A stretch of DNA of 64,000 nt, from the NCBI RefSeq assembly GCF_055900595.2, contig NZ_CM148325.1, one strand, 5' to 3'. Made by a program: the position numbers and the translations under genes. A model generated the notes under the pieces. It saw only the letters and a program-made list of their open reading frames with translations. It did no database searches and was not told the DNA's origin. Positions 42,104-42,514 of this stretch are shown here, one piece after another. Each line of letters starts with the position of its first letter. Within the stretch, counting starts at the first letter, position 1.

Positions 42104-42514
42104 GCTTGTCCCCGTTTTTTCTTCCTTTGCTAATAATAATGTCTTTTTCGCTCCGTCATCATAACGAAAATCAAACCGCTCAGGTAAAGAAGTGAAAATA
42201 TTTTGAGTTAATTCTTAAGCTATGATACAAATCAGGCGTGTTCAACTACCGAGGACAATTATCATCCGCGATGATGAGAAGCAACACTGCGGATAATTGT
42301 AATATTATGGACAATTTGTTCAGGACGTTATTTTCTACATTTACCCATCTTCGTACCTCATCCACTATCTTGCTCGTAGGTGAGCAGCACTGGCGCAACG
42401 CGCTTTAGTCCTTTCTTCTGCCTAACCTTGCGCTATGCGCGGGGCTTGATCACTTTGCTCTGGTTTCGCTGAATTGAGCGAAAGATAAAATAATTCTCTT
42501 GCAGGAGAAGGACG

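Follow-up and report, generated by a model that had tools for sequence, protein, structure and literature searches.

Which part does an imperfect inverted repeat play in the leader of the spermidine exporter operon mdtJI? The repeat is found at positions 42255-42300 of a 64,000-nt stretch of Escherichia coli DNA (contig NZ_CM148325.1; "the window" hereafter means this whole stretch, and all coordinates refer to it), in the region between tqsA and mdtJ. An original prediction, made from the letters alone, had described a stem of about 12 bp with a 19-nt loop and proposed a cis-acting, possibly riboswitch-like RNA element in the leader of mdtJ. Sequence inspection, a repeat search and the predicted fold all agree with the repeat as described, and our comparative analysis indicates that it is a real, strongly conserved RNA hairpin. 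The idea of a structured cis-acting leader element was correct, while its assignment as a riboswitch for mdtJ was not. The hairpin precedes mdtU (42307-42408), an upstream open reading frame (uORF) that the original prediction had missed, and lies in the 69-nt 5' untranslated region (5'UTR) of this uORF. We propose, with about even confidence, that mdtU has a split (non-contiguous) translation-initiation region, with the hairpin as the structure in between.

The regulatory setting of this proposal is largely known. As had been presumed for mdtJI, the leader is a spermidine-responsive cis-regulatory region (Adams et al., 2021). Translation of mdtU is evident from ribosome profiling, from a western blot signal and from an mdtU-lacZ fusion that is abolished by an ATG-to-ACG mutation of the start codon (Adams et al., 2021). 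The same mutation abolishes spermidine induction of both mdtJ mRNA and protein (Adams et al., 2021). Furthermore, the leader is prematurely terminated by Rho, and relief of this termination by spermidine requires mdtU; in a rho mutant, spermidine induction is substantially reduced, yet not abolished (Adams et al., 2021). By analogy with speFL, these authors favour polyamine-induced ribosome stalling at the conserved C-terminus of MdtU, while a review from 2025 lists the mechanism of the mdtJI leader as undetermined.

Comparative sample

To define the hairpin and its surroundings, 80 mdtJ loci were collected with one genome per species, and 79 orthologues were measured for leader features. The loci collected comprise the genera Escherichia, Enterobacter, Lelliottia, Citrobacter, Kluyvera, Klebsiella, Raoultella, Leclercia, Silvania, Trabulsiella, Phytobacter, Kosakonia and others. 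More divergent leaders came from a metagenome scan in which the loop core and the AUG region served as anchors and the arms were left free. In each divergent metagenomic leader examined, mdtU and then mdtJ were found downstream. The overall comparison covers about 85 enterobacterial and metagenomic orthologues, and base pairs were counted on 64 distinct sequences. A protein search with MdtJ for distant orthologues returned only close relatives among the matches listed, and a query with the 56-aa YdgV protein brought in Salmonella, C. koseri, C. rodentium and Intestinirhabdus, in all of which the leader translation is the same. The annotation used for comparison is the RefSeq annotation of strain Z0117EC0005, which is 100% identical to the window.

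The mdtU 5'UTR and its hairpin

The 5'UTR of mdtU can be divided into the following features:

42238, plus strand: transcription start site (TSS) of mdtUJI, a G; published site transferred from K-12 via an indel-free alignment
42238-42254, plus strand: 17-nt 5' tail, predicted to be single-stranded, ending in GAGG (42251-42254), which resembles a Shine-Dalgarno (SD) sequence
42255-42259, plus strand: 5' arm of the lower helix, ACAAU (extending to 42261 in Escherichia and Citrobacter), pairing with 42296-42300
42260-42264, plus strand: 5' side of the internal loop or bulge, the most variable part (column entropy 0.78)
42265-42269, plus strand: 5' arm of the upper helix, UCCGC, pairing with 42289-42293
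42270-42288, plus strand: terminal loop of 19 nt with the nearly invariant core GAGAAGCAA at 42276-42284
42289-42293, plus strand: 3' arm of the upper helix, GCGGA
42296-42300, plus strand: 3' arm of the lower helix, AUUGU (from 42294 in Escherichia and Citrobacter; column entropy 0.0)
42301-42306, plus strand: A/U-rich spacer of 6 nt between the stem and the mdtU AUG
42307-42408, plus strand: mdtU (ydgV, b4777), a uORF of 33 codons plus stop, from the K-12 annotation

The window is about 97.6% identical to most E. coli strains, and its tqsA-mdtJ intergenic region, which measures 411 bp (42104-42514) and not the 410 bp first given, aligns with that of K-12 without indels. Consequently, published K-12 coordinates can be transferred directly. 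Primer extension placed the TSS of mdtJI at a G, with the mdtJ ATG at +278 (Leuzzi et al., 2015), and a distance of 278 nt between TSS and mdtJ is given by differential RNA sequencing as well, as cited in Adams et al. (2021). The published TSS (42238) lies upstream, not downstream, of the repeat at a distance of 17 nt, and thus the hairpin is transcribed. It spans +18 to +63 of the mRNA, and its 3' foot ends 6 nt ahead of the mdtU AUG (42307, +70).

The arms of the repeat read ACAATTATCATCCGC at 42255-42269 and GCGGATAATTGT at 42289-42300 and include a perfect 9-nt inverted repeat (42255-42263 and 42292-42300). In the predicted RNA fold, 7 bp (42255-42261 with 42294-42300) are followed by a 3-nt bulge (42262-42264) and a further 5-6 bp (42265-42270 with 42288-42293), giving 12-13 bp in total, a terminal loop of about 19 nt and a folding energy of -14.5 kcal/mol. 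This hairpin is part of both the minimum free energy (MFE) and the centroid structure of the entire 5' leader. Its local z-score is -3.2 and equal stability was reached in one of 200 shuffles. However, 71% of 150 dinucleotide-shuffled intergenic regions hold a 56-nt window that folds to -14.5 kcal/mol or lower, and other parts of the real intergenic region are more stably folded than the hairpin. The stability is thus unremarkable and the significance of the hairpin must rest on comparative data. It is conservation and covariation across species, not folding energy, that put the hairpin beyond chance.

The block of highest conservation in the leader reaches from the TSS to the first codons of mdtU. 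Across genera, the 69-nt mdtU 5'UTR shows a mean pairwise identity of 0.91, equal to that of the first and second codon positions of mdtJ (0.91), while the third positions of mdtJ reach 0.57. Within the hairpin, the stems have a column entropy of 0.0-0.07, compared with 0.42 for the terminal loop and 0.78 for the internal loop on its 5' side; paired columns average 0.042 versus 0.356 for unpaired ones (Mann-Whitney U test, p=0.0013). The flanks of the terminal loop are variable, and its core GAGAAGCAA is altered in one aligned sequence only (L075, GGGAAGCAA). Among 5,426 complete E. coli genomes, a 90-nt leader block is present as a single copy in 5,422, with at least 95% identity in all; one of these 5,422 matches sits on a record classed as plasmid instead of on a chromosome. 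A covariance-model search of the window found the element itself and no second copy.

The RNAalifold consensus consists of two 5-bp helices, ACAAU/AUUGU and UCCGC/GCGGA, which are separated by an asymmetric internal loop of 5 x 2 nt. The hairpin was predicted in all 79 orthologues, with a mean pair probability of 0.96 for the upper and 0.79 for the lower helix. Pairing at the ten consensus pairs reaches 99.5% over the 64 distinct sequences (99% of cells in the lower, 100% in the upper helix). The covariation check that had been suggested for the stem revealed two adjacent compensatory pairs in the upper helix and not a single uncompensated change there: at 42267/42291, C-G is replaced by U-A in Leclercia and Silvania, and at 42268/42290, G-C is replaced by A-U in the lineage L145/L161. 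Two such double-change pairs were reached in only 7 of 500 shuffles, and the slid controls had not a single one. At the base of the stem, E. albertii carries a change from A-U to G-U, a pairing that survives only in the RNA of the plus strand. In Phytobacter and Kosakonia one pair of the lower helix is lost through changes on both arms, and the arms shorten in step. Judged from these alignments, the variation that exists respects the helix.

Two sequence variants of the hairpin were noted besides. At 42275 the window strain has a T where K-12 and most E. coli have a C (AUGAUG for AUGACG); this sole hairpin difference from K-12 adds a second in-frame AUG in the loop. L147, a contig from a human-gut metagenome, has an E. 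coli-type leader whose 3' arm lacks one G (GCGATAATTGT), which would break the upper helix. Since the coverage of this contig is low (about 2x), the loss may be a sequencing error.

Initiation of mdtU translation

The start codon of mdtU is not preceded by a canonical SD sequence: in an anti-SD scan of positions -18 to -1 the best match was GCGGAU with -3.3 kcal/mol, and this match is gone in Leclercia. The strongest anti-SD match of the 5'UTR is instead the GAGG at 42251-42254 (-5.9 kcal/mol; the SD of mdtJ itself gives -6.9). It abuts the first paired base on the 5' side of the hairpin and is 52 nt away from the AUG at 42307 in the linear sequence. All 79 orthologues carry GAGG or, in Leclercia, Silvania and L093, GGAG at this foot, with anti-SD energies of -5.6 to -6.6 kcal/mol. 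The 5' tail of 17 nt and the spacer of 6 nt between stem and AUG are likewise the same in 79 of 79, while the length of the hairpin is 42, 46 or 47 nt. Thus, indels are tolerated only inside the hairpin.

Taken together, the 5'UTR combines a distant SD-like element, none at the canonical distance, and a predicted hairpin that would restore a functional spacing. The proposed mechanism builds on this geometry. The arms of the hairpin start right after GAGG and end 6 nt before the AUG, so that folding would cut the distance between SD and AUG from 52 nt to a normal spacing of 6 nt, and 30S subunits would then be able to start mdtU. We infer that GAGG is the SD sequence in actual use and that the folded hairpin is needed for initiation. 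Because translation of mdtU is required for induction, the hairpin would control entry into the attenuation mechanism; it would set, and could modulate, exporter expression via mdtU translation.

There is precedent for such an arrangement. In the phage T4 genes 38 and 25, SD and AUG are 22 and 27 nt apart, respectively, and a hairpin reduces these distances to 5 and 11 nt. Non-contiguous initiation regions of a related type are known from the thrS and rpmE mRNAs, where an operator hairpin separates an AU-rich enhancer from the SD sequence.

Several points weigh against the split initiation region. The hairpin, with 46 nt, is larger than the T4 examples, and a purely geometric role leaves both the near-invariant loop core GAGAAGCAA and the conserved 5' tail unexplained, which hints at an additional partner. 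PIRT-seq reporter fusions were obtained in two frames within the loop, and in some constructs initiation may take place ahead of the AUG as well. Near-invariance of the element limits the covariation to two or three independent events, and the compensatory changes would equally preserve an inverted repeat in the DNA. A lacZ deletion series (Leuzzi et al., 2015) was considered as a test and is uninformative: all three constructs contain the hairpin, the shortest ending at 42376.

Further observations concern the two flanks of the hairpin. In most genera the 5' tail reads GUGUUUAACUAC-GAGG, and its stretch GUUUAACU is identical to part of what we take to be the phage T7 gene 10 leader of pET vectors (UUUGUUUAACUUUAAGAAGGAG), presumably the 'epsilon' translational enhancer followed by an SD sequence. 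The tail including GAGG (42239-42253) can also pair with 42372-42387, corresponding to mdtU codons 23-28, at -14.8 kcal/mol, and this pairing is part of the MFE structure of the leader. Such pairing would sequester GAGG; a partner at this site is seen in several genera, though not in all. On the other side, a second small hairpin, UGGAC/GUUCA with the loop AAUUU (42308-42322, plus strand), includes the U and G of the mdtU AUG. Its five RNAalifold pairs are kept in 59 sequences, and C-G is changed to U-G in three. According to this prediction the small hairpin could mask the AUG, or it could merely mirror the conserved coding sequence MDNxF.

Alternative explanations

A first alternative extends the split initiation region and does not exclude it: spermidine might bind to the bulged hairpin, stabilise it and thereby bring the distant SD nearer to the AUG, so that more mdtU translation takes place and ribosomes block Rho. 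Targets of class 1 of the polyamine modulon have an obscure or distant SD sequence and a bulged-out hairpin region in the 5'UTR, the structure of which is altered by spermidine (Igarashi and Kashiwagi). The mdtU 5'UTR has the same anatomy, with its distant SD and a predicted 3-nt bulge or 5 x 2-nt internal loop, and the hairpin could for this reason respond to spermidine itself. The need for mdtU translation in spermidine induction of mdtJI, the residual induction in the rho mutant and the verdict of the 2025 review can be counted in favour as well. On the other hand, Adams et al. (2021) prefer stalling at the MdtU C-terminus, their mdtU-lacZ fusion is robustly active already without added spermidine, and conservation within the hairpin is lowest in the internal loop, to which spermidine would have to bind. 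For these three reasons a spermidine-responsive hairpin is less likely, and we regard it as unlikely overall. The more specific claim, that hairpin and internal loop form a minimal spermidine-sensing switch which gates mdtU initiation, ribosome occupancy of the leader and thus Rho termination, appears improbable to us. If true, it would represent a natural polyamine sensor made from a split ribosome-binding site (RBS), acting upstream of, or together with, the nascent-peptide stalling proposed for MdtU.

A second alternative is a translational operator, in which a protein or small RNA recognises the loop GAGAAGCAA or the stem and represses or activates mdtU initiation. Loop core and stems are conserved well beyond the needs of folding, thrS and rpmE set an example of operator hairpins inside non-contiguous initiation regions, and three GGAYAAUU repeats are located at 42253, 42291 and 42309. 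We found no conserved pairing partner for the loop core downstream, the best duplex site differing by genus, and since no conserved intramolecular partner was found, a trans-acting one is possible. However, no candidate for such a partner was found, and Leclercia has lost the middle GGA but compensates for it on the other arm, an argument for structure rather than for a GGA motif. We give the trans-acting operator a rather low probability. Two specific candidates were rejected. CsrA was considered for the three GGAYAAUU repeats, a motif that occurs 9 times in the window against 5.25 expected. It was dismissed in view of the compensated loss in Leclercia, and a literature search for CsrA together with mdtJ gave nothing specific. 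A PuuR operator with GGACAAT half-sites was dropped because the puuA-puuD intergenic region carries motifs of the type AAAATATAATGA and not GGACAAT.

The repeat might also act as DNA, as an operator just downstream of the promoter that is bound by AcrR, H-NS or another regulator. AcrR shifts a 286-bp mdtUJI promoter fragment with two predicted sites, and a 24-mer similar to the AcrR site overlaps 42288-42311, but with 10 mismatches. H-NS binds the region (Leuzzi et al., 2015), its boxes downstream of the TSS being predicted only, and symmetric changes in both arms fit a palindromic operator as well. However, the AcrR shift was only partial at 1 uM protein, and the 24-mer matches at 14 of 24 positions, a level that occurs 0.66 times per kb across the window. 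Between the centres of the half-sites lie 38 bp, and the interruption is asymmetric; H-NS has no need of base-exact conservation. Furthermore, the G-U replacement maintains pairing in RNA only, and a DNA operator leaves both the exact distance of 6 nt to the AUG and the SD at the foot of the hairpin unexplained. Its chances appear slight.

Fourth, the conservation might stem from coding, either by a longer YdgV protein, starting at GTG 42238 or at ATG 42271 (CDS62), or by a separate small gene that overlaps the hairpin:

42222 (ATG) to 42296 (TAA), plus strand: CDS61, small gene proposed from PIRT-seq (MIQIRRVQLPRTIIIRDDEKQHCG)

RefSeq/PGAP annotates a 56-aa YdgV at 42238-42408, and PIRT-seq yielded in-frame reporter insertions at positions matching 42285 and 42287, from which CDS61 and an earlier mdtU start were proposed. 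However, CDS61 is intact in just 21 of the 79 orthologues and cut to 7 codons in 36, and its ATG falls within the -10 region, upstream of the TSS. The extension of mdtU meets an in-frame stop after the TSS in 25 of 79 orthologues and has no in-frame start in 11, and many have AAG, CTG, ACG or AGG in place of ATG 42271. Variability by phase (0.20, 0.27 and 0.32) lacks a three-base periodicity. The Pfam family YdgV (PF23502) has 33 positions and matches only residues 24-56 of the 56-aa protein, exactly the mdtU ORF, and it is the ATG-to-ACG change at 42307 that abolishes the fusion (Adams et al., 2021). Since the reading frames are not kept, periodicity is absent and Pfam covers the last 33 residues only, coding fails to explain the conservation, and we give it hardly any credence. 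The 56-aa YdgV annotation, whose GTG start coincides with the mapped TSS, is probably over-extended by 23 codons, and the reporter signal in the CDS61 frame might reflect GAGG-driven initiation once an insertion breaks the hairpin.

Equally remote is a riboswitch, that is, a spermidine or guanidine aptamer acting directly on mdtJ. Other small multidrug resistance (SMR) exporters are controlled by riboswitches. A spermidine riboswitch class has been reported, and the operon does respond to spermidine (Adams et al., 2021). But the original prediction had recognised no riboswitch consensus by eye, and a cmscan of 41900-42700 against Rfam 15 (E<=10) likewise found no riboswitch family, including guanidine-I, -II and -III, and gave only three sub-threshold matches to eukaryotic snoRNAs (16-17 bits versus gathering thresholds of 34-55). 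Moreover, the predicted structure is a single interrupted hairpin ahead of a uORF and not a multi-helix aptamer with an expression platform, it is about 215 nt away from the RBS of mdtJ with the uORF in between, and induction is lost upon mutation of the mdtU start codon (Adams et al., 2021).

Promoter, uORF and remaining leader

Outside the mdtU 5'UTR, the locus comprises the following features:

41069-42103, minus strand: tqsA, from open reading frames and RefSeq annotation
42223-42231, plus strand: probable extended -10 element TG-n-TACAAA of the mdtUJI promoter, from its position relative to the published TSS
42409-42514, plus strand: remaining leader, region of Rho-dependent premature termination, from MFE and centroid folds and Adams et al. 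(2021)
42515-42880, plus strand: mdtJ, spermidine/multidrug SMR exporter together with mdtI, from open reading frames and RefSeq annotation of the identical strain
42867-43196, plus strand: mdtI, SMR exporter subunit gene together with mdtJ, from open reading frames and RefSeq annotation of the identical strain

The promoter assignment is probable on the basis of geometry and conservation: TG is found at -15/-14 and the hexamer at -12 to -7 relative to the TSS, and the motif is kept as TG-n-TA[CG]AAA across most genera. A scan for the sigma-70 consensus detected no -35/-10 pair. Further upstream, a direct repeat GTAAA-N5-GAAAA at 42184-42198 corresponds to -54 to -40 of the mdtUJI promoter. 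It is kept as GTAAAGAnnTGMAAA in all genera examined, and this type has only one other match in the 64-kb window. The repeat resembles what we take to be the CpxR box (GTAAA-N5-GTAAA). It has been suggested that high pH and spermidine increase transcription initiation as well, and a CpxR box would agree with this.

An mdtU-like open reading frame is found in every one of the 80 loci that provides enough upstream sequence. Its C-terminus GEQHWRxAL is kept with few substitutions across nearly all orthologues, and its stop codon is located 92-117 nt upstream of mdtJ. For the Rho-terminated leader a 3' end has been mapped 6 nt into mdtJ (Adams et al., 2021). Just past the mdtU stop, a pyrimidine tract UCCUUUCUUCUGCC (about 42410-42422) is predicted to pair with the mdtJ RBS GCAGGAGAAGGA (42500-42512). 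This pairing is present in both the MFE and the centroid fold of the leader, in line with the idea of RBS masking that is mentioned by Adams et al. (2021). A single terminator-like site at 42439-42458 is unrelated to the hairpin.

Significance

Few cases of polyamine-controlled Rho attenuation are known from bacteria; the mdtJI leader is among them, and published work on it has centred on the C-terminus of MdtU. Conservation within the leader, however, peaks in the 69-nt 5'UTR ahead of mdtU, which has a covarying hairpin and an invariant geometry of SD, hairpin, spacer and AUG. The leader, the uORF and the control by Rho were known before; no description of the conserved hairpin and its geometry of SD, hairpin and AUG was found in the searchable literature. 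They provide a concrete hypothesis, open to mutagenesis, on the way in which translation of mdtU is established and perhaps adjusted by spermidine. In addition, two annotations can be corrected: the 56-aa YdgV of RefSeq, which is probably over-extended, and CDS61, the small gene proposed from PIRT-seq. Should the hairpin only serve a constitutive split RBS, it would be a neat chromosomal example of a rare arrangement, and no surprise.

Comparison with known systems

Compared with known systems, the mdtU leader shares single traits with several. Like the riboswitches of SMR exporters (the guanidine classes) and the spermidine riboswitch variants of SAM aptamers, the element is located upstream of a substrate-responsive SMR operon. 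Unlike them, it has neither a covariance-model match nor a multi-helix architecture, and control is exerted via translation of a uORF.

With class 1 of the polyamine modulon (oppA, rmf, fis, rpoN and others) it has in common the distant SD and a bulged 5'UTR hairpin by the initiation site, which in those targets is spermidine-responsive; a response to spermidine at the level of the gene system is shared as well. However, mdtU is a uORF of 33 codons that acts through Rho and not through a protein product.

The leader as a whole resembles speFL, which precedes speF-potE and responds to ornithine, and tnaC. A translated uORF with a largely conserved C-terminal peptide stands ahead of the leader, and Rho termination (Adams et al., 2021) is relieved by a polyamine. 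Sensing in speFL and tnaC is done by the nascent peptide inside the ribosome; the mechanism described for mdtU does not include a conserved, structured 5'UTR ahead of the uORF.

The non-contiguous initiation regions of thrS and rpmE differ in that their hairpin parts an AU-rich enhancer from the SD sequence and is a protein operator, while the arrangement in mdtU is a predicted one. The T4 genes 38 and 25, finally, share with mdtU an SD sequence that is far from the start codon in linear terms, a stable and phylogenetically conserved hairpin in between, and the absence of a canonical SD. In contrast to T4, where spacings of 22-27 nt are bridged, the mdtU hairpin comprises 46 nt, contains an internal loop and a conserved terminal loop, and precedes a regulatory uORF.

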